A DNA stretch of 64,000 nt from Holophagae bacterium (GCA_030429565.1 JAUIFE010000004.1:158848-222847), one strand, 5' to 3'. Counted from the stretch's first letter, positions 52,022-63,208 are shown. The notes: generated by a model not told the origin, from the sequence alone. Numbers and translations: made by a program.

Positions 52022-52200
52022 GTCTTAATGACCACACCCGGGCCGCCCGTTCCAACTGGAACGCGCGGCCCTTTTTTATGGGGTTTTTCCAGCGTAGCGC
52101 CTGGCGATGTGAGAAAATCCACCATGATGATGAATACAGCGGCGATGCGACATCGGGCCGGTGCCTGCTCGGGCCGCGACAGAAAAAGCAGGTGGCGACC

Positions 52201-53394
52201 ATGAAATGGTGTTCGGTGGCTTCGCGCGGCACCGATTTGGCAGCGCAAATTAAGCAAGCGGGTGCCGCCGTTTTGGCGGAATTCGACGGTCAGAGTCCGG
52301 ATATTTTGTTCGTTTTTCTTTCGGCACACTTTCGCGAGCAGTTTGATCAAGTGCCGCGTTTGCTGGTCGATGTCTGTCAGCCCGCGCAAATTTTTGGTTG
52401 TTGTGGCGGCGGTATTTTGGCGGCGGGCAGTGAAATTGAAGACGAGTGCGGTGTTGCTTTGATGGCGGGTTTGTTGCCCGACGTTTTTTGCCACAGTTTT
52501 GCTGTGGCGCCCGAGGAATTCGCTGAACTTGATTCGCAACGCCTAATCGACAAAATTGGTGTCCCAGCCGAAAACAGTCCCTCGTTTGTGTTGTTATTCG
52601 ATCCCTTTTCTTGTCCGATGGAGCCCTTTCTCAGTTTGCTCGATCAAAGCTTTCCCTTTAGCCAGAAAATCGGTGGTTTGGTAAGTGGCGGCCGTGGGCC
52701 CGGTTATCACGTCATGTACCATGGCGGTCACGTGACGGATCGTGGCATGGTCGGGCTGGTGTTCGACGGCAACTTGGCGATGGATACGATGGTGGCGCAA
52801 GGTTGCCGACCGATTGGCAGTCCCTTGTTTCTGACATCCGTCGCCGGCTCGATTATCCGGGAAATTAACGGTGAAACGCCGCGCCGCGTGTTGGAACAAA
52901 TGTACAGTGATTTATCGGAAACCGACCGCGCCCTTTTTCGCCACGCGCTTTTCCTCGGCATTGAGATGCAGCCGGACGAACGTGTCTACAATCGCGGTGA
53001 TTTCCTGATTCGGAATCTGATGGGGATTGATCCGCAAAATGGCTTCATTCAGGTTGGCGCCGACTTGAGCCGTACCAAGGTGGCGCAATTCCATGTGCGT
53101 GACACGCACACTTCGCGCGAAGACTTAAGGTTGCAGCTTGATCGCTACCAGGAGACCCTGGGGGAGCGCGTGCCGCTTGGTTCGCTGATGTTCACCTGTT
53201 TAGGGCGCGGCATGCGTTTTTACGATGCGCCTGATGTGGACAGCGGGTTGGTGCGCGATGTGTTTGACCAACTGCCGATGGGCGGTTTCTTTTGCAATGG
53301 GGAAATCGGGCCGGTTCAAGGACGGACCTTTGTGCACGGGTACACCAGTTCACTGGGCTTTATGCGGCCGCGATTTGGGGCCGACGAAAACTAG
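52201..53394 (+). CDS. FIST-domain (FIST_N plus FIST_C) sensory protein
   Basis: ATG 52201 after AGGTGG; layout and motifs (IFGCCGGGILAAG ... FHVRD) consistent with FIST N and C domains. Confidence 0.6.
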   Translation: MKWCSVASRGTDLAAQIKQAGAAVLAEFDGQSPDILFVFLSAHFREQFDQVPRLLVDVCQPAQIFGCCGGGILAAGSEIEDECGVALMAGLLPDVFCHSFAVAPEEFAELDSQRLIDKIGVPAENSPSFVLLFDPFSCPMEPFLSLLDQSFPFSQKIGGLVSGGRGPGYHVMYHGGHVTDRGMVGLVFDGNLAMDTMVAQGCRPIGSPLFLTSVAGSIIREINGETPRRVLEQMYSDLSETDRALFRHALFLGIEMQPDERVYNRGDFLIRNLMGIDPQNGFIQVGADLSRTKVAQFHVRDTHTSREDLRLQLDRYQETLGERVPLGSLMFTCLGRGMRFYDAPDVDSGLVRDVFDQLPMGGFFCNGEIGPVQGRTFVHGYTSSLGFMRPRFGADEN

Positions 53395-54134
53395 GTGTTA
53401 CCGCGGTTCAGGGCTGCCTTCATCTTACTTAGGACGGCCGGACCACTTTGCTGGAAGAACTCGAGCAGCTCGTTGAGGCCCGCTTGCTGTCCGTGAAGCA
53501 TAATTTTGCGTGGTTTGGGCGAGGCCTTTTGAATATTGGCGGCGTGGGTGAACACGATCTTCTGATAGAGCAGCGAGCATTGCTCTTTTTGTTCGCGTTT
53601 CTTATCAATTTTTTTACGGATCGCGTTGCGTTTGTTTTGCTCCACGGTGGCGCCGAGTTTGGTGCGCAATTCTTTGATTTGGTCGGCCAGCTTGGTGGCT
53701 TCCGTCGCCGTTTTGTAGAGGGTGGGAAACACGTTGTAGGTGACGTTTTTGTAGGTACCGCCGGTTTCCTCTTGAAGGATGGTGACCTTCTCTTCTTCGT
53801 AATAAGACTGCAAACACAGCAGGGCGCGGAAGGTCGCTTTGTCTTCAACAAGCAAACTGGGGCATTCACCCTTGCGCACGATCTTCTCGAAACCCGAAAC
53901 CAGTTTCTTTTCAAGGCTTGAGTATTCGCCGTTAATTCCTTTGTTGATGCCGAGAAACGCGACAATGTCGGCGTGAATGCGTTCAAGGACATTGATCGGC
54001 GTCAAGGAAAGTTGGTACAAACGGTCGGACTCGTCCTGAGTTTGTAAGTCCTTGGGCGAACCTTTTTCGCCGGCGGTGGGGCTCAGCGTTTGATCAGTGT
54101 CGGGAGCAGGAGAGAATTTGTCGTCAGCCACCAT
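53391..54134 (-). CDS. hypothetical Lys/Glu-rich protein (lower GC than its surroundings)
   Basis: start MVADDKF (ATG complement 54132-54134); charged, probably coiled-coil; no recognised motif. Confidence 0.4.
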   Translation of the reverse strand: MVADDKFSPAPDTDQTLSPTAGEKGSPKDLQTQDESDRLYQLSLTPINVLERIHADIVAFLGINKGINGEYSSLEKKLVSGFEKIVRKGECPSLLVEDKATFRALLCLQSYYEEEKVTILQEETGGTYKNVTYNVFPTLYKTATEATKLADQIKELRTKLGATVEQNKRNAIRKKIDKKREQKEQCSLLYQKIVFTHAANIQKASPKPRKIMLHGQQAGLNELLEFFQQSGPAVLSKMKAALNRGNT

Positions 54135-54302
54135 AAACCTACTTGATTGTGTGACGCGCGCAAAAAGAAGTGTATTGGCAATTTCAAAAGACGGCATAAA
54201 CCGTTTTTCAGAGCGCGCAAACTTATTTGTAGCAAACCCTGCACCCGAGAATCAATCATCATCGTGGTGGTTTTACAGCTTTGTTAAAAAACACCGTGCG
54301 CG

Positions 54303-55400: not shown

Positions 55401-56216
55401 GTGAAGGTTTTGCGTTTGCTTTTGGTTCTTATGTCGACCCTGACCATGCTTTGCGCCCAAGAGACGCAGAAAAATCGGTTCGACGAATTGCTGCCGACCA
55501 TCGATAAATTGGAAGCGCCCACTCGCGGTGATCGTCTCGCCGCCGTGGGGCGAATTTTTTTGGATGTGCCTTACGAACCCAACACCTTGGAAGTGAACGA
55601 CGAAGAAACGCTGGTCGTTCGTTTCGACGGGTTTGACTGTTTTACTTTCGCCGAATCAGTTTTGGCGTTGGCCCATGTGCCCGCTTCTTATGAGGCCTAT
55701 CGCGAGTTGTTGCAAAGTTTGCGCTATCGCAACGGTCAAATTCAGGGGTATGCCTCGCGTTTGCATTACACCAGCGATTGGGCCCACGAAAATGCGAAAA
55801 AGGGCCATGTTGCCGATGTGACCCAAGCGATCGGTGGCGTGCCCTATGACAAAACCATCGACTTTATGTCGAAGCACCGTCAGAGCTATCAGGCGCTCAA
55901 ACACAACGATGCCGCGCTCGAACAAATTCGCGGGGTCGAGCAAAAACTGAATCAGCAAAAACGTTACTATTTGCCCAAAGAGCAGTTGGCCCAGGCCGCC
56001 GGCCGCATTAAAGAAGGTGACATCTTGGCGATCACCACCTCGATTGCCGGTCTTGATGTGGTCCACGTGGGCTTGGCGGTGTTTGTTGAAGGACGGCTGC
56101 ATATGCTGCACGCCTCTTCTAAAAACAAGAAGGTCGAAATTACCAAAGAGCCGCTTGCCGATTACTTAGCCCGTCACCGCACCCAAACCGGTGTCATGGT
56201 GTTCCGACCTCGGTAA
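55401..56216 (+). CDS. secreted protein, possibly a DUF1460/cell-wall-amidase-like family member
   Basis: signal peptide MKVLRLLLVLMSTLTMLCAQE; RFDGFDCFTFAESVLALA motif recalled from DUF1460-type proteins (tentative); 3' end overlaps the convergent ORF by 43 nt. Confidence 0.4.
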   Translation: MKVLRLLLVLMSTLTMLCAQETQKNRFDELLPTIDKLEAPTRGDRLAAVGRIFLDVPYEPNTLEVNDEETLVVRFDGFDCFTFAESVLALAHVPASYEAYRELLQSLRYRNGQIQGYASRLHYTSDWAHENAKKGHVADVTQAIGGVPYDKTIDFMSKHRQSYQALKHNDAALEQIRGVEQKLNQQKRYYLPKEQLAQAAGRIKEGDILAITTSIAGLDVVHVGLAVFVEGRLHMLHASSKNKKVEITKEPLADYLARHRTQTGVMVFRPR

Positions 56217-57787
56217 GTGCGCCAGGCGCGAAATACCGACAATGCCAAGCCGATGAAGTTACCGGTACTCGTCCGCACCAGGGCCTGGACGGCGGCGCCG
56301 AGCAGTTTGAAGGCAAGCGCCGCTGTTGAAAAGGCTTTGTCAACGGCTTGTTCGTGTTCAAGCCGGCCTTGATTGTCGCGTTCGCCTTGCACCAAATTCA
56401 CTACATCGCCCGCACCTTGCCACCAGGTCGCTACAAAGTTTTGGCCGGTGCCGGTAGCAATGGGTTGTCCGGAAACCAATTGCGCGGTTGTGCGCAGTCG
56501 GCGCCAAAAGACCCGCATGCTCTCTTCGATGGTGCGCCGCAAGGCGGTGAAACAGCGCAAGGCCGTTTGCCAAGGGCCGGTGAGGCCGCGCCAAGCGACC
56601 AAAGCGCCACGTGCGACGGCACGGCCGGCATGAACCAAGCCGGCACGAACGGAAGCGTAGGTGCGCCTCGCTAAGTTTTTAGCCGCGTTCCAGGTGCGTC
56701 CGAGCCAGGAGGTGGTTCCGGCGGTCGGTGTTGGCGCACCTGGGTCTTCAGCCAGAGCCACCGCTTGCGCTTCTTGCATGCCGAGCGCTGATAACTGGTT
56801 TTCGTGGGCCGCGACCTCTTCTTCCGTCGGTCGTTCAAACCCGAACAGCGCGAAACAGCGCGGCGCCAGCCACAAACGGCCGTTCCACCAGCGTATCACC
56901 GTGGCTTGGTCGACGCTGAGCTCTTGAAGCCACAGGCGTAGGGCCGCCAAACTGGCCGAACCGAAGGACGCGTCGAGACCGCGTTGGTAGTTGCCGGCAA
57001 TCCAAAGGTGGACCTGAAGCAGCGCCAACCCGAAACGGTTTTTTAAGCCGTCGTCATCACCGGCCGGCAACGGGGTGGGGGCGCTGGCGAAGCCGCCGCC
57101 GCCACCGTCGATACGCGAAAAGGCAAGGGTGGCCGGGGTGTGGTTCAATCCCTCGGGTGGCCGCCCGGAGGGGACGACCAGGCAGCGACCGCCCGGCGCG
57201 TCGCCGTTGGGTTTTGTTTGATCAAAAAATCGTGCGCCGCATTGATAAGGATCGCCGAGCAAGGTCAGTGTTTCGCGGCTGACGGCGCGATCCAGATGGG
57301 GCAGACCGAGCAAGTGGCGAAACAAACAAAAAGCCAAATACAGAGATTCGTCGAGGGTGTCTTGAATGGGACCGTGATACAGGCCGAGCCGACTGAGTTG
57401 CAGGGCGGCGACGCGCACGATCAAACCGCGCGCACCTTGTGGCAAGGGTTGGGCGGGCAAGGGGAAAGGCAAAGGCTCGAAGGTGGTTAAGCGGGCCACC
57501 CAATCGCGAAAATCGGGGTCGTTGGGGTCCGACGAAGTTGCGTTGGGTCGTTCGTCGGCCAGGCTGGAACAGGCCGCCTTTAACGCCGTCGGGTCCGGCG
57601 CGGTAACGCCTTCGGCCAGGTAACCCAAGGCTTGCAAATGGCCGATAAAGGCCGGGTCGGGTGGTGCCGGTTGCCCCTCAAATTCGGCGACGCCGCCCAG
57701 GTCAAGGGCGGTATCGATCGCCGCAAGGGCTGCGAGCGGATTGGCCGCCGGCGGCGGGGTCGTCCAACCGATCCAAGGCTGCTTCAT
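56174..57787 (-). CDS. hypothetical 537-aa protein (last gene of the peptidase operon)
   Basis: long Ala/Gly/Pro-rich ORF, 4-nt overlap with the upstream 128-aa ORF; no recognised domain. Confidence 0.45.
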   Translation of the reverse strand: MKQPWIGWTTPPPAANPLAALAAIDTALDLGGVAEFEGQPAPPDPAFIGHLQALGYLAEGVTAPDPTALKAACSSLADERPNATSSDPNDPDFRDWVARLTTFEPLPFPLPAQPLPQGARGLIVRVAALQLSRLGLYHGPIQDTLDESLYLAFCLFRHLLGLPHLDRAVSRETLTLLGDPYQCGARFFDQTKPNGDAPGGRCLVVPSGRPPEGLNHTPATLAFSRIDGGGGGFASAPTPLPAGDDDGLKNRFGLALLQVHLWIAGNYQRGLDASFGSASLAALRLWLQELSVDQATVIRWWNGRLWLAPRCFALFGFERPTEEEVAAHENQLSALGMQEAQAVALAEDPGAPTPTAGTTSWLGRTWNAAKNLARRTYASVRAGLVHAGRAVARGALVAWRGLTGPWQTALRCFTALRRTIEESMRVFWRRLRTTAQLVSGQPIATGTGQNFVATWWQGAGDVVNLVQGERDNQGRLEHEQAVDKAFSTAALAFKLLGAAVQALVRTSTGNFIGLALSVFRAWRTYRGRNTMTPVWVR

Positions 57788-58170
57788 ACTACCTTAAAGG
57801 TTTCAATCACGGACTGAATGAAGGCGTTGCGGGCGGTACGTGCCTGCTGAACGGTTTGGTTGTGCAGGGACAACAAACTTTGTTGTTCCGGCGTCAAGCC
57901 GTCCTTGATGAACAGGGCGGTGTCCATATCAGCTTCGATGTGGGTGACAGCCAAGGCGTTGAGGCCTTGGCTCTTGACGCCTTTGATGTTTGACAAAATG
58001 TCCTGAAAGGTAATGGTTGTATCGGCTTGCCCGTCGCCTGCTTGTTGGTTGAGGGTGACATCGATCTCGCCGGTAAGCGTGACCACGTCAAGCGTCGCAA
58101 TGTCGGTGACCATGGCTTCGATGGAATCCCAAAATTTGGCGAGAGGACCGGATGGCACATTGTTGCTCAT
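57784..58170 (-). CDS. hypothetical 128-aa protein
   Basis: small ORF between the peptidase and the 537-aa gene with overlapping stop/start; no motif. Confidence 0.4.
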   Translation of the reverse strand: MSNNVPSGPLAKFWDSIEAMVTDIATLDVVTLTGEIDVTLNQQAGDGQADTTITFQDILSNIKGVKSQGLNALAVTHIEADMDTALFIKDGLTPEQQSLLSLHNQTVQQARTARNAFIQSVIETFKVV

Positions 58171-58195
58171 GAAAAACTCCTTGTTGGATTGGCGT

Positions 58196-59110
58196 TTAAC
58201 GCCAGTTCACTTTGTAGACACGGTCGCGGAAGCGCCAGGGCGGCGTACCTTCCAGTTGGTCTTGGGGGTAGACTTTGAGCAGTTCGCCGCCGAAGGTGGA
58301 GGCGCCGGGAATCAGGCCTTGTTCGAATTGGAAGTGCCACCACTCCGAGGCAAGGGGGTCGCCGTTTTGTTCAAAACGCAGCCGGTAGGGGATGGGGTAA
58401 AAGTCGAATTCGGCCATCAGTGCGGTCAAATCGAAAAACGGGCCGGTGACGCTGCGTTTTTTGGTGAAACCGGGGTCGCCGCTGACGAGAATGTTCTCAA
58501 GTGTCACCTCGGCCACTTTGTCGGCGGTGCCACGGGCAAAAACCCGTAGACTGCGTTTGACGGAGTCCTCAAGCTGGACCACGTAGGGATCGCTGTCGGG
58601 ACGGCGCAGGGCGCACCAAAAGAATAGGTCGAGTGCGCGGCCGAGGTAGTGAAACGAGGTGGCACTGCGGTTGTAGGCGGTGTGCGCGTTCAGGCAACGG
58701 CGGCCGGCCGAAGAGGTCAGCATCCCACCGCGTGCGTTGACCTGTTCTTTAAGTAGCGTGTAGGCGTGGGCGGCGTCGGCGCGCAGAAAAAGACAGTGAT
58801 TGCCGCCTGGAAAATCATCGGCATGGACCTTCATAAAAGGAATTAGGTTGCCGGAGGCGGCGGCGGTGCCCGGCGAGTTGAGTTCAATCACATGGTGTTG
58901 GTAGGCGTTTTCGATGGCGGCCATGGTGATCGGTCCAATGCAGCCGTCGGCGTAGATGCCCGCGAATTCTTGGAAACGGATGACGGCTTGTTCGGTGCGG
59001 TGGTCAAAGTTTTTATCAACCGGACCCGGATAAAAGCCGAGCGCGAGCAGTAGTTGCTGCACTGCTGCAACGGATTCAGAACCCTTTGGGGTTTCCCGAC
59101 TTAACGTCAT
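58196..59110 (-). CDS. peptidoglycan-binding domain plus M15-family (VanY/LAS-type) zinc peptidase
   Basis: N-terminal PG_binding_1-like repeat (AVQQLLLALGFYPGPVDKNFDHRTEQAVIRFQ); SFHYLGRALDL (SxHxxGxAxD) and EWWHFQF (ExxH) zinc-ligand motifs. Confidence 0.65.
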   Translation of the reverse strand: MTLSRETPKGSESVAAVQQLLLALGFYPGPVDKNFDHRTEQAVIRFQEFAGIYADGCIGPITMAAIENAYQHHVIELNSPGTAAASGNLIPFMKVHADDFPGGNHCLFLRADAAHAYTLLKEQVNARGGMLTSSAGRRCLNAHTAYNRSATSFHYLGRALDLFFWCALRRPDSDPYVVQLEDSVKRSLRVFARGTADKVAEVTLENILVSGDPGFTKKRSVTGPFFDLTALMAEFDFYPIPYRLRFEQNGDPLASEWWHFQFEQGLIPGASTFGGELLKVYPQDQLEGTPPWRFRDRVYKVNWR

Positions 59111-59368: not shown

Positions 59369-62300
59369 ATGCTTGTAAAGAGGCCCGTGCGTTTTTTGGG
59401 TTTGATCACCATGGTTTGCATCGTTTTGGGGGGGCTTTTCGCGGGGGAAACCCTGGAACAAGGCGATGGGTACTACACGATTGATCGCCAGGTTTTCGAG
59501 GTCAATGAAACCATTCAGTTGGTAGCGGAATACGATGAAGAGGTAACCGATGTGCAGTTCCGTTGGTCGCTTGGCGACGGACGCGAACTTGACGGTGCCG
59601 AGGTGGTTTTCAGCTATACCCAAGCCGGCGTGTATGAAGTGGCGCTGTACAGCGTATACAGCGACGGCGATATCGCCGATGATCCCTATACCCATTACGT
59701 TTTTGTCAACGATAGTGCCGCCGTTCCGGTGAACACCGAACCCTTGCCCAATTTGGAGCAGCCCAAGTTCGGCCGTGTCTTTGCTCTAAGCGAGGCCGTG
59801 CCTTACGCCGGTTACGGCTTTGATTACGACGATGATACGGTTGAAACCTACTGGGATTTCGACGACGGTACGGTCGCGGTCGGTGAAGAAGGCGTCAAGT
59901 GTTTTACCTTTCCAGGCCATTATGCGGTGCGCATGTACGTGCGTGACAGTAAGGGTTACACCAATCGCTTCAGCGAGGACGCCCTGATTTACATCTACGA
60001 GGATGAGCCACCGCTTGAAGGTGTGATCGTATCGCCACCGCAGCCCGATGAAGAGCAACAGGAACGGGGCGGCGTGATTATGCGTCCCAATCAGCCGTTG
60101 GTTTTCCGCGGCGAAGCAGCCGCCGGTGTGGTGGCCGGCAATAGCGACGGTCGTTGGCTTTTTGAGGACGAAGAAGGCAATATCGTGCTGGAGCGACAAG
60201 GTCTGGAAATCGAAGTCGCCTTTGCCGAAGAGGGCGAATTAACCGCCTTGTTTTATTTGATTGATCCGGTTGACAGCGATCGTTCCGACCCGATTCCCGA
60301 TGAACGCAACCTGTTGGTGGTTGGTAACCTCGCGCCCGAGTTTGAGATTTTGGAGCCCGGTTTCGATGTGCAAATTGAAGTGGGTGACGCCCTTCCGTTC
60401 GCGGCCGAGGTTGAAGAAGAGGAGGGCGACGCCGTCACGGTTACCTGGCAAATCTCCGATGGTCGCGTTTTTAGCGGGGAACGCATCGATGAAGTGATTT
60501 TTGCCCAAACCGGCTTGTTTTGGGTCGACGCCTTCGCCACCGACAGTCGTGGTGCCGTCGGTCGTGACACCCGCATCTACGTTAACGTCTTGCCGCTTGA
60601 CTTCGACGAGGACGATGCCCCTCGCTTCACCGGCTACACCCCAAAGGAATTGCAGCTATTGGGTCCGGAACGCTTTAATTTTTACTTCTCCGCGAGCGCC
60701 GTAAACCCAGATGGTTCCCCCGTCACGGAGTACCTGTGGGATTTTGATAACGGCACCACCGCGGCGGTTGCCAATCCCGGCAACGTCGCCTACGCGCAAG
60801 CTGGTGAGTATTTTCCGCGCGTATTTGCCCGGGGCGACAACGGCGTTTGGTCGCTGTACCCTCACGAATGGCGTGTGGTCATTTTTGACAAATCCAACAT
60901 TCCGCCCATTACCGAAATCACGCAACCGCCGCCGATTGCCGGCTTGGAAAACGATTTTTTTGGCGCGCGTGTTCTGCTGCACGACATCACGCAACCACTG
61001 GTGCTCGAAGGTACCGCCACCGATCTCGACGGCGACTTACCGCTGCAGGTTGGCTGGTTTCTGGAACCCATAGATTACGACGAAGAAGAGCTCGAGGTGC
61101 CCTTTAGCACCGTGCTCAAGCCCGAGCCGCTGCGCTTCGAGGAAGTCGGCTACTACCATTTGGAATTGGAAGCCTGCGACAGCCGCATGAACTGTGAGGG
61201 CATCGACGATTTCCGTTTGGTTCAGGTCTACGATGCGAGCCTTAAACCGGAGGCGGAAATCATTGAACCCGATGGGACTTATACGGTGGCTCCAGGGGAA
61301 CCGGTTTATTTTGAGGCGGTTGGGTACGATCCCAACGATTTAGATATGGAATTTTACTGGGACTTTGGTGCCAATGCTTCGCCGTCGACCTATGTCGGTC
61401 GCGAAGCCGGTCCGATTGTCTTTAGCGGGCCCGACGATGGTTCGATCACCGTTGACGTCGCCGTAACGGTCAAAACACCGGTAAATGAAAGCGCCGCACC
61501 CGCGCTGCGCCAGGTGATCATTGCTGATTTGGACGAAACCGATTTTGAACCCAACAACAGTTTTACCGAAGCCAAACCCTTGGCGCGTGGTGCCTACAAC
61601 AATCTGGTACTCGGCGACGACGACCCCTTCGACTACTTCATTTTTAACGTTGATCGCGACGGCCGTGATTTTCGTTTGGAGCTGGATAGTCTTGAAGAGC
61701 TGCTGGTGACGGTTTACGAAATCAACAACGGCGTTCCGTCTGACACGCCGATCGATGCGTTTTTGGTTAAAAACGACAGTTTGCTGATTGAGGATGTCGC
61801 GCGCGGCGAGTACTTGCTCGTGTTTTCGGTACCACCCGCCAAAGACGGCAAAAGGCGCAATCTGAACTACGGCATGACCGTCACCACCTTACAGCCCCAA
61901 TTGTTCCTGCCGTTTTTGGTGGAAGACGGCAGCCTGAGCAGCCGTATTGGCTTGGTGAACGTGCACCCCGAACCCGTGGAAATAACCCTGGTTGGTTTGG
62001 ACGGACAAGGTAAAACGATTGACCAACGCACGCTAAGTTTGGCCGCCAAACAACGGTTATACCAACCTGCGCTCGACTTTTTCGGTACCGAAAACAACAT
62101 CAAAAAAGCGCTGCGCATCAAGTGGGTTAAGGTGCTTTCAACGCGGCGTTTGGTCGGTTTTGTTAACGCAGAAACCCGCGACAAACTCCAGCTCATGAGT
62201 GTCGGCGCCTCGAAGTCACTGCAATCGGAGGTGATCGTGCCGCACATCGCCGCACGCACCGACCAGTGGTACACGCGCGCGGTGGTTGTGAACGGCGGTG

Positions 62301-63208
62301 AACAAGCGCAATCGCTCGATTTTACGGCGGTAAACGGCGCGACCGAGATCGGGGTTAATGCCGCCTCAGCGCAAACCGATTTCCGTTTCCGCGAGAAATT
62401 TACAGCCTTGCCGGAGTGGGGTCGCTTTAAAGATCGCGACGGTCGCCCTAGTATCAGCGGTATCGAAATATTCGGCCGGGTCGACGGCGCCAAACAGATG
62501 GCGGGTCTCGAGATGGTGCTGCCGCGTTCCGCCAATCCCAACTTCTTGAGTGACGCCAATACCATTTACTTCACCCACGTGGCGGCCGACACCACCAACT
62601 TCTGGACCGGTATCGCCCTGATTAACGCTGATGCGACCACCGCCGGCTATAACCTGTTCGGCTATGACGCCGCCGGCCAGGTGGTGCAATCGCTCAGCAA
62701 TCAAAGCTTGCCGCCCAATGGGAAGCTCCTCAACACCGTGCAGGGTATTTTTGGTCCCAATCACGGTGTTGCTTGGATTAAGGTGGTCGCGGATAGCTCG
62801 ATTTCCGGCTTCGAACTTTTTGGTGATCCAGGCGGCCGCCGCTTGGCCGGTTTCCCCGCCGTGGAAAACCTGACCGACCATCTGTGTTTCCCACATCTGG
62901 ACATTGTGGCCGGTCAACGCTGGACCGGGATCGCTCTGTTAAATGTGGGGACGGCGACAACCAACGTCACCATTACCGCTTACTCGGCTGCCGGCGGTAA
63001 AGTCGGCGAAACCAGCCGCGCGCTGGCACCTTTGTCTAAGTTGGTGGCCTTACCGGAAACCCTGTTCGACGGTGGTTTGCCGGCCAACGCGGTTTATTTA
63101 GAAGTGCAAGCTGACCGCAAAACCATTAACGGTTTTCAGTTGTTCGGTACCCTCGATCAGAACGGCTTAGGCGATCAATTCGCTGGTCTACCGGGGCAAA
63201 CCCAATAA
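59369..63208 (+). CDS. large secreted multi-PKD-domain protein with PPC domain and about 450-aa C-terminal domain
   Basis: signal/TM anchor LGLITMVCIVLGGLFAG; at least five PKD-like repeats with WDFDDG / WDFDNG / WDFGAN cores; PPC-like segment FEPNNSFTEAKPL...GDDDPFDYFIFNV. Confidence 0.7.
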   Translation: MLVKRPVRFLGLITMVCIVLGGLFAGETLEQGDGYYTIDRQVFEVNETIQLVAEYDEEVTDVQFRWSLGDGRELDGAEVVFSYTQAGVYEVALYSVYSDGDIADDPYTHYVFVNDSAAVPVNTEPLPNLEQPKFGRVFALSEAVPYAGYGFDYDDDTVETYWDFDDGTVAVGEEGVKCFTFPGHYAVRMYVRDSKGYTNRFSEDALIYIYEDEPPLEGVIVSPPQPDEEQQERGGVIMRPNQPLVFRGEAAAGVVAGNSDGRWLFEDEEGNIVLERQGLEIEVAFAEEGELTALFYLIDPVDSDRSDPIPDERNLLVVGNLAPEFEILEPGFDVQIEVGDALPFAAEVEEEEGDAVTVTWQISDGRVFSGERIDEVIFAQTGLFWVDAFATDSRGAVGRDTRIYVNVLPLDFDEDDAPRFTGYTPKELQLLGPERFNFYFSASAVNPDGSPVTEYLWDFDNGTTAAVANPGNVAYAQAGEYFPRVFARGDNGVWSLYPHEWRVVIFDKSNIPPITEITQPPPIAGLENDFFGARVLLHDITQPLVLEGTATDLDGDLPLQVGWFLEPIDYDEEELEVPFSTVLKPEPLRFEEVGYYHLELEACDSRMNCEGIDDFRLVQVYDASLKPEAEIIEPDGTYTVAPGEPVYFEAVGYDPNDLDMEFYWDFGANASPSTYVGREAGPIVFSGPDDGSITVDVAVTVKTPVNESAAPALRQVIIADLDETDFEPNNSFTEAKPLARGAYNNLVLGDDDPFDYFIFNVDRDGRDFRLELDSLEELLVTVYEINNGVPSDTPIDAFLVKNDSLLIEDVARGEYLLVFSVPPAKDGKRRNLNYGMTVTTLQPQLFLPFLVEDGSLSSRIGLVNVHPEPVEITLVGLDGQGKTIDQRTLSLAAKQRLYQPALDFFGTENNIKKALRIKWVKVLSTRRLVGFVNAETRDKLQLMSVGASKSLQSEVIVPHIAARTDQWYTRAVVVNGGEQAQSLDFTAVNGATEIGVNAASAQTDFRFREKFTALPEWGRFKDRDGRPSISGIEIFGRVDGAKQMAGLEMVLPRSANPNFLSDANTIYFTHVAADTTNFWTGIALINADATTAGYNLFGYDAAGQVVQSLSNQSLPPNGKLLNTVQGIFGPNHGVAWIKVVADSSISGFELFGDPGGRRLAGFPAVENLTDHLCFPHLDIVAGQRWTGIALLNVGTATTNVTITAYSAAGGKVGETSRALAPLSKLVALPETLFDGGLPANAVYLEVQADRKTINGFQLFGTLDQNGLGDQFAGLPGQTQ

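Follow-up and report, generated by a model that had tools for sequence, protein, structure and literature searches.

How can a bacterium keep, in its own chromosome, a wall hydrolase without an export signal, and what stands in for the holin? This question is raised by positions 55,401 to 59,110 of a 64,000-nucleotide (nt) stretch of a Holophagae bacterium (GCA_030429565.1, JAUIFE010000004.1:158848-222847), hereafter the window, in which the gene for a predicted peptidoglycan-binding zinc peptidase is followed on the minus strand by genes for two unannotated proteins of 128 and 537 amino acids (aa), here p128 and p537. A leaderless wall hydrolase endangers its own producer and, to our knowledge, the storage and release of such enzymes are known for few systems, namely holins, signal-anchor-release (SAR) endolysins, and type 10 secretion. 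The four open reading frames (ORFs) concerned are present in the ORF list at the coordinates reported in a first-pass annotation of the same sequence:

58196..59110, minus strand: peptidase, first gene of the triad, 304 aa
57784..58170, minus strand: p128, second gene of the triad, 128 aa
56174..57787, minus strand: p537, third gene of the triad, 537 aa
55401..56216, plus strand: convergent AmiA-like gene, 271 aa

The three minus-strand genes recur together in distant phyla. When the ORFs of the 76 peptidase-encoding loci returned by a reference-genome scan were searched locally for the partners, 12 of these loci were found to be triads; a word-indexed search found relatives of p128 and p537 only from Acanthopleuribacter-type genomes. 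In Acanthopleuribacter pedis, three metagenome-assembled genomes (MAGs) of Desulfobacterota, one of Zixibacteria and two of Rhodobacterales, as well as in two further MAGs of Alphaproteobacteria and one of unclassified Pseudomonadota, the genes run in the order peptidase, p128, p537. A p537 homologue comes directly after p128 at each locus with a sufficiently long contig. In a MAG of Acidobacteriota, the peptidase is followed by p128 and the contig ends before p537, while a Thiosulfatimonas MAG (L062, 4998-7858) holds a permuted version—p128, a p537-like gene of 515 aa, and the peptidase—in which p128 still precedes p537. As counted, the triad thus ranges over at least five phyla (Acidobacteriota, Desulfobacterota, Zixibacteria, Alpha- and Gammaproteobacteria). 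Additional triads were obtained from metagenome loci, where a scan with the back-translated p128 signature motif D-x-x-T-L-D-V-x-T-x-[TS]-G identified 11 true p128 genes, and as far as the contigs reach all 11 lie between an upstream peptidase and a downstream p537. In most loci, p128 and p537 overlap or are at most 25 nt apart, and clustering of the neighbouring ORFs revealed nothing beyond the triad that is conserved around it. Plasmids yielded just two distant matches, both from Novosphingobium. This recurrence across phyla indicates that the three minus-strand genes work as one unit, as the first-pass annotation had supposed, and strongly supports a functional unit of three genes that has passed from phylum to phylum.

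The three ORFs are real genes, as deduced from their codon signal and from the homologues that each of them has in other, distant phyla. Under a codon log-likelihood model trained on eleven long genes of the window, the three minus-strand genes score +0.42, +0.42, and +0.26 in frame (the peptidase with +0.42) and -0.38 to -0.69 out of frame, a pattern that resembles that of the neighbouring genes; the suspicion that the two downstream ORFs might be non-coding can therefore be set aside. p128 and p537 overlap as described, the stop of the former and the start of the latter sharing 4 nt (ATGA, 57784-57787); the peptidase and p128 are 25 nt apart without any overlap. p128 and p537 are translationally coupled to each other. 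A Shine-Dalgarno sequence, AAGGAG, lies 7 nt 5′ of the p128 ATG, and a GAGG about 8 nt 5′ of the peptidase ATG. A scan of Rfam gave no RNA family and a promoter scan no sigma-70-like match.

On the other hand, the convergent plus-strand gene is not part of this unit. Its product is a member of the AmiA-like family (Pfam PF07313, E 2.8e-55, 187 bits against a cut-off of 27), and its 3′ end overlaps that of p537 by 43 nt on the opposite strand (56174-56216), an overlap that had been noticed before and that A. pedis keeps identically (L001, 10918-10960). Owing to this coding overlap, there is no space for an intergenic terminator. The Acanthopleuribacter-type homologues share the C-terminal end of p537, ...NTMTPVWVR. 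The peptidase operon and the secreted AmiA-like amidase had been proposed to form a single cell-wall module, in keeping with the peptidoglycan-related nature of both and with the conservation of the overlap in A. pedis. However, this gene adjoins the triad in the Acanthopleuribacter lineage (A. pedis) only, and the other triad loci have no adjacent AmiA-like gene, so that a joint module is contradicted by the comparative data and hardly credible; the secreted AmiA-like gene is a lineage-specific neighbour and not a member of the module.

What the unit could do depends in the first place on its enzyme, whose features are the following:

58913..59080, minus strand: PG_binding_1 domain of the peptidase, aa 11-66
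58199..58849, minus strand: LAS-fold (M15-like) catalytic domain, aa ~88-304, ~215 aa
58628..58657, minus strand: zinc-ligand motif S152-x-H154-x-x-G157-x-A159-x-D161 (SxHxxGxAxD)
58334..58345, minus strand: catalytic and zinc motif E256-W-W-H259 (ExxH)

The N-terminal domain matches PG_binding_1 (PF01471) with an E-value of 2.7e-15 and 56.7 bits (cut-off 23), as had been expected. The two segments highlighted in the first-pass annotation, SFHYLGRALDL (aa 152-162) and EWWHFQF (aa 256-262), are both present and contain the SxHxxGxAxD and ExxH motifs, which are invariant in the 26 aligned family sequences (26/26) and kept in 96 of 97 bacterial and viral sequences, as are R110, D112, S133, R138, and R148. 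H154, D161, and H259 are the predicted zinc ligands, and E256 is the predicted catalytic residue. Both phmmer and the family profile align the peptidase with the zinc DD-carboxypeptidase of Streptomyces albus (1lbu) through the first zinc motif. The AlphaFold (AF2) model, with a predicted local distance difference test score (pLDDT) of 91.6, superposes on VanXY, VanY, LdcB, VanX, and Ply500, and the LAS-fold comparison gave these values:

VanXYc: 8.2
VanXYg: 8.0
VanYB: 7.9
LdcB: 7.5
VanX: 7.3
Ply500: 7.2
LysB4: 6.9
Hedgehog: 5.8
MepA: 5.1

A search of BFVD with the same fold returned just matches of low template-modelling (TM) score, driven by the PG-binding domain. Motif invariance, the alignment with 1lbu, and the superposition of the model together assign the catalytic domain to the LAS fold, with the corresponding active site as modelled, and the earlier call of a peptidoglycan (PG)-binding, LAS/VanY-type protein was right for both fold and active site. 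As a predicted zinc peptidase, the enzyme would be expected to cleave a bond of the stem peptides.

With regard to the known LAS zinc peptidases of MEROPS family M15—VanY, VanXY, VanX, LdcB, 1lbu, Ply500, and T5—the window peptidase has both motifs in common with them, and with 1lbu also the whole architecture of an N-terminal PG_binding_1 followed by the catalytic domain. It is nevertheless too divergent for the curated profiles, its catalytic domain of ~215 aa bearing extra loops, and the catalytic domain shows no M15 match in Pfam or NCBIfam even at E ≤ 1; the Pfam scan for Peptidase_M15 that had been proposed as a check is consequently negative in spite of the LAS fold. Because of this lack of any curated M15 match, the peptidase is filed as a new, divergent LAS subfamily outside the existing Pfam families, that is, as a new and profile-negative subfamily of a well-known fold. 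The sequence search recovered 312 homologues at E ≤ 1e-3, of ~296-304 aa; among the 120 homologues listed, the Pfam matches are to PG_binding alone and the named ones are called "peptidoglycan-binding domain-containing protein". Current profile libraries therefore annotate a large family of PG-binding LAS peptidases as just "peptidoglycan-binding protein", and a family profile would re-annotate hundreds of these proteins as LAS peptidases whether the enzyme acts on the wall or in the cytoplasm.

Contrary to 1lbu, MepA, and LdcB, the window peptidase has no signal peptide, in agreement with the first-pass annotation. Its N-terminus enters the PG-binding domain directly, there is no hydrophobic segment (maximal 19-residue Kyte-Doolittle mean of 1.21), and none of the 26 aligned relatives reaches 1.5 on the same scale. 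Most of its gammaproteobacterial homologues (~296 aa) stand alone in variable contexts, and neighbour joining places the triad-linked enzymes as a paraphyletic grade around this stand-alone clade. In the alignment, a loop region of the catalytic domain (aa ~180-222) exceeds its counterpart in the stand-alone forms of Gammaproteobacteria by 7-8 residues, and this extension is a trait of the triad-linked enzymes.

A leaderless protein with a PG-binding and a catalytic domain is also the layout of the endolysins of phages infecting Gram-negative hosts (phiKZ gp144 type), and the enzyme family does occur in phages. IMG/VR holds 76 loci with full-length peptidase homologues of 25-43% identity, and the sampled contigs encode a UvsX-like recombinase, a DnaB helicase, a ribonucleotide reductase, a virion protein, and an HNH endonuclease according to PHROG matches, which, together with the gene order, identifies them as real phages. 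Viral and bacterial sequences fall in separate clades of the tree. Unlike phage endolysins, the window peptidase is chromosomal; the window ORFs examined include no phage genes, nor was a holin or a spanin seen beside it. Its two partners are likewise absent from the viral searches: the 76 viral loci hold no homologue of p128 or p537 in the 8 kb on either side of the peptidase, tblastn gave no match in 50,697 phage genomes, and the p128 motif had not a single match in IMG/VR, although it matched 11 of the fetched triad loci, used as the positive control. On the evidence of these searches, a phage origin of p128 and p537 was rejected. The cell-wall remodelling proposed in the first-pass annotation turns out to be too general a description of an enzyme family that is common to phages as an endolysin-type protein.

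In one group of phages (L140, L142, L144, L147-L150, L154, L156-L159), the LAS domain lies inside proteins of ~420-1300 aa (for instance L147, 5868-8657), encoded after two conserved small genes and before a gene of ~310 aa, which in several cases is followed by one of 1900-2300 aa. This layout suggests a virion- or tail-associated lysin, not a soluble endolysin; a 929-aa phage protein with a LAS domain had no PHROG match.

The fold comparison and the phage relatives bear on a cytoplasmic role. The LAS peptidase might have its substrates inside the cell, namely recycled muropeptides or peptidoglycan precursors, in the manner of VanX, VanXY, or an LdcB-type carboxypeptidase, with p128 and p537 as scaffold or regulator and with the PG-binding or PG-binding-like domains of the enzyme and p537 holding soluble muropeptides. 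The best matches of the catalytic domain do include the cytoplasmic VanX, VanXYc, and VanXYg, none of the three families has a signal peptide or a transmembrane segment, the chromosomal context is stable, syntenic, and non-mobile, and at least one cytoplasmic protein, OpcA (9emm), has a PG_binding-like fold. However, the full-length architecture is often met in bona fide phage contigs, where a leaderless PG-binding hydrolase marks a wall-lytic enzyme; the recycling genes ampG, ampD, ldcA, and mpl are not conserved nearby; and a very basic, amphipathic domain of p537, described below, is left unexplained. Cytoplasmic processing is therefore an unlikely reading, which, if true, would nevertheless add an unrecognised branch of muropeptide processing.

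The larger partner, p537, had been described as lacking recognisable domains, like p128. The statement stands for p128, which has no match in the libraries scanned, whereas p537 holds two degenerate PG_binding_1-like domains, identified by comparing them with the PG-binding profile of the peptidase in hhalign, followed by a C-terminal domain of a different kind:

57239..57448, minus strand: PG_binding_1-like domain A of p537, aa 114-183, hhalign probability 90%, E 1.5e-6
56891..57034, minus strand: PG_binding_1-like domain B of p537, aa 252-299, hhalign probability 88%, E 3.3e-6
56177..56755, minus strand: C-terminal domain of p537, aa ~345-537, helical, cationic, and amphipathic

A third such domain at aa 39-79 is doubtful. 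Pfam PG_binding_1 was found in 10 of 15 members of the p537 family, the window copy remaining below threshold; the family profile matches the PG-binding domain of SleB (6tci), and p537 also shows a weak match to the NCBIfam model of the SleB N-terminus. For the window copy itself, scans of Pfam, PHROG, and PADLOC gave nothing usable. The N-terminal part of the protein is acidic, with an isoelectric point (pI) of about 5, and the C-terminal domain reaches a pI of 11.8 and a net charge of +15. In the family, the median pI of this domain is 10.4 and the net charge ranges from +13 to +19 in 13 of 16 members, while its mean hydrophobic moment lies 2.9-6.4 standard deviations above that of shuffled sequences in all of them (16/16). 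A hydropathy scan detected no signal peptide in the family. A transmembrane helix was considered for the top hydrophobic segment (Kyte-Doolittle 1.2-1.9) and rejected: this helix holds Lys, Arg, or Asp in most members, and because of these charges it was not called transmembrane.

The first hairpin of this C-terminal domain repeatedly gave weak profile matches to phage tape-measure proteins (PDB 9d93, E 4.9e-4; 9m8o, 0.09; 9j1k, 0.5), and PHROG tape-measure families are matched with E-values from 8e-4 to 0.1 by two members, mainly one. In the PDB profile search, only the PG-binding domain, designed helical bundles, and these marginal tape-measure matches appeared, those beyond 9d93 spanning E-values of 0.09-5.6. 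Since designed helical bundles score like tape-measure proteins against p537, the signal may be compositional, and the similarity is taken here as a faint lead rather than as homology; no tail genes were seen around p537 at the triad loci. The Thiosulfatimonas homologue is the member of the family with the clearest PG_binding and tape-measure-like PHROG matches.

The smaller partner, p128, is a small, acidic, soluble protein of a new family. Its pI is 4.4 (family median of 4.97, n = 90), and when 1.84 billion representative proteins were searched exhaustively with phmmer, 140 clusters were recovered, almost all of them stand-alone proteins of 110-140 aa; a match of 297 aa differs by a longer central loop, and the single long match was rejected as a coiled-coil artefact. 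In the family alignment, the central loop is variable and V29, G34, D81, D83, H103, and R114 are invariant. No relative was found in Pfam, NCBIfam, PHROG, or PADLOC, where scans with the whole family alignment gave noise, and the profile matches nothing in the PDB even at E ≤ 10. The AF2 model, of low confidence (pLDDT 62), has the topology helix, strand, loop, helix, hairpin, long helix and no credible structural neighbour, which would fit a protein that folds solely inside a complex. None of the 90 aligned members has a signal peptide, and the hydropathy scan found no transmembrane helix.

Taken together, these properties lead to a tentative model, preferred here with somewhat less than even confidence, in which the module would be a self-contained, gated device that opens the cell's own wall or leads to autolysis, with no need for a classical holin. 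According to this model, the peptidase and p537 would accumulate in the cytoplasm. The cationic, amphipathic domain of p537 would attack the anionic inner membrane or pass through it, and this would bring the peptidase and the PG-binding domains of p537 to the murein, where the peptidase would cut stem peptides. The acidic p128, made just before p537, would be the safety catch, either by masking the basic domain of p537 in the manner of a chaperone or an anti-holin, or by blocking the peptidase, an inhibition that might alternatively be exerted through the invariant Asp, Asp, and His residues. The output would be regulated autolysis or a local opening of the wall, releasing cell contents, vesicles, or large cargo.

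Several observations are consistent with such a device. Enzyme and p537 both have wall-binding domains, which argues that both are meant to meet murein; no transmembrane protein is encoded within the triad or conserved beside it, and only the basic amphipathic domain of p537 appears to have the physico-chemical character to handle the inner membrane. The production of p128 directly before p537, together with its opposite charge, makes it the obvious candidate for the part of chaperone or catch. Cationic amphipathic helices are known to give some endolysins intrinsic membrane activity (PMC11929351). In a more specific version, the triad would be a holin-free lysis or release machine in which p537 breaches the membrane from inside by means of its tape-measure-like domain, with p128 as the catch; in this detailed form the proposal is rather unlikely.

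Other observations weigh against a gated device. The p128 model is of low confidence (pLDDT 62), and a helical domain that is basic and amphipathic might just as well have nucleic acid as its ligand or fold into a soluble bundle. As most bacterial homologues of the peptidase lack the partners, the enzyme is not strictly dependent on them. The triad has no conserved neighbour that encodes a cargo, a regulator, or a holin, and the closest structural matches include the cytoplasmic VanX and VanXY. The locus is stably syntenic in two Acanthopleuribacter-type genomes, with which a housekeeping role agrees as well as a suicide device.

The candidates for a holin deserve separate mention. Three loci of Desulfobacterota type (L079, 9606-9854; also L080 and L081) hold an ORF of 82 aa with two hydrophobic segments and a basic tail, a holin-like topology, 147 nt upstream of the peptidase gene, which is found neither at the other triad loci nor in the window. 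The small flanking ORFs of some Desulfobacterota-type loci were rejected as holin candidates, since the window lacks them and other lineages do not conserve them. In several triad loci, among them L079 (12974-13222), L082 (12953-13189), and L160 (8272-8511), the start of an additional, fourth ORF of 78-82 aa overlaps the p537 stop; those of L079 and L082 have no detectable similarity to each other or to the window.

That bacteria make use of phage-type hydrolases from their own chromosomes is not new, and in this the gated device proposed here resembles the type 10 secretion and lysis cassettes—Serratia ChiW/ChiX, Salmonella TtsA/chitinase, and the Yersinia entomophaga lysis cassette (LC)—where such a hydrolase is likewise fixed in the chromosome and serves the cell itself. 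ChiX is itself a LAS-family peptidase. These domesticated cassettes have been described as secretion or lysis devices (PMC10847048, PMC10109510, PMC13284979). However, the defining parts of type 10 systems are a holin, in many cases a spanin, and a cargo gene next to them, whereas the window module has p128 and p537 instead: neither of the two has a transmembrane helix, the small flanking ORFs are not conserved, and the loci have no gene in common beyond the triad that could represent a cargo.

A delivered toxin has also been considered, as the first-pass annotation had mentioned an effector/immunity-type module. The peptidase, perhaps along with p537, would be an antibacterial effector exported by a type VI secretion system (T6SS) or an extracellular contractile injection system encoded elsewhere, and p128 its cytoplasmic chaperone or adaptor. 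Leaderless PG hydrolases with small co-encoded partners are typical cargo of the T6SS, p128 is small, acidic, and always co-encoded, and p537 is faintly similar to the tape-measure proteins of phage tails. In spite of this, no vgrG, hcp, PAAR, or tail gene was found in the scanned window ORFs or beside more than 20 triad loci, no phage genes appeared among these window ORFs, and PADLOC gave no matches. Without a signal peptide, p128 cannot be a periplasmic immunity protein, which leaves no candidate for this function, and the contexts of the triad in the MAGs of Zixibacteria and Desulfobacterota are unrelated. The effector/immunity reading is thus weak, and the delivery of these proteins as an effector set is distinctly unlikely.

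The gated device could also serve defence, in an abortive-infection module where infection would make p128 release p537 and the peptidase, with premature lysis as the result. The module is compact, patchy, and seemingly horizontally mobile, it combines a latent self-lytic enzyme with a candidate inhibitor, and the GC content of the triad (0.53-0.63) exceeds that of its flanks (0.48-0.53). These arguments are countered by the absence of matches in PADLOC-DB v2 for eight proteins from the three families, apart from noise at E 0.06, by flanking genes that are metabolic or regulatory rather than defence islands, and by the conserved position in two related genomes, and an anti-phage role is accordingly improbable to a high degree.

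Two further known systems share part of the organization. In Bacillus spores, SleB, a lytic enzyme with PG_binding_1, is co-transcribed with YpeB, a large partner on which it depends. The PG-binding domain of SleB is the best match, in sequence and structure, for the PG-binding and PG-binding-like domains of the window module. SleB-YpeB differs in its transglycosylase catalytic domain, in that YpeB is not homologous to p537 or p128, and in that both proteins are exported, whereas the module proteins have no export signal. Tape-measure proteins and their small assembly chaperones are alike in that a small protein is encoded directly upstream of a long helical one, and in some phages a homologue of the peptidase domain is part of a protein of 700-1300 aa; here, however, the E-values of p537 are marginal (4.9e-4 to 0.5), tail genes are lacking nearby, and p128 matches no chaperone family. 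As far as libraries and literature searches show, neither the constant link with two unannotated families nor the lack of a holin has been described before.

The module thus points to an undescribed control of a self-directed wall hydrolase. If the more specific, holin-free version of the device is true, it would represent a third route for a leaderless wall hydrolase across the membrane, beside holins and SAR or signal sequences, and bacteria of several phyla would use the triad for programmed autolysis or for the release of vesicles or cargo. Should the partners gate or deliver the enzyme, they would provide a new control logic for autolysis and protein release, as well as a source of membrane-active and lysin parts.

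The surroundings of the triad are those of an ordinary chromosome. The window encodes TonB-dependent receptors, Ser/Thr kinases, histidine kinases, CheA, SppA, a FIST-domain protein, and a PKD-repeat protein, and A. pedis is syntenic with it across at least nine genes, with 69% identity of the peptidase. The GC content is 0.58-0.61 per kb in the triad region (56000-59000), 0.63 in p537 alone, and 0.48-0.53 in the flanks, and the GC content at third codon positions is 0.67-0.68 in the triad, slightly above the 0.59-0.64 of neighbouring genes. The excess of p537 lies mostly in codon positions 1 and 2, the protein being rich in Ala, Arg, and Gly, and is not a clear sign of recent transfer.

Beyond the convergent AmiA-like gene, a 268-aa ORF without Pfam match (53391-54197, minus strand) converges with the FIST-domain gene (52078-53394, plus strand) with an overlap of 4 nt, and at the syntenic position A. 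pedis has a 247-aa gene without domains. On the other side, divergent from the peptidase gene and not conserved at other triad loci, the gene for the 1279-aa PKD-repeat protein (59369-63208, plus strand), which has an N-terminal hydrophobic segment, occupies the same position in A. pedis.

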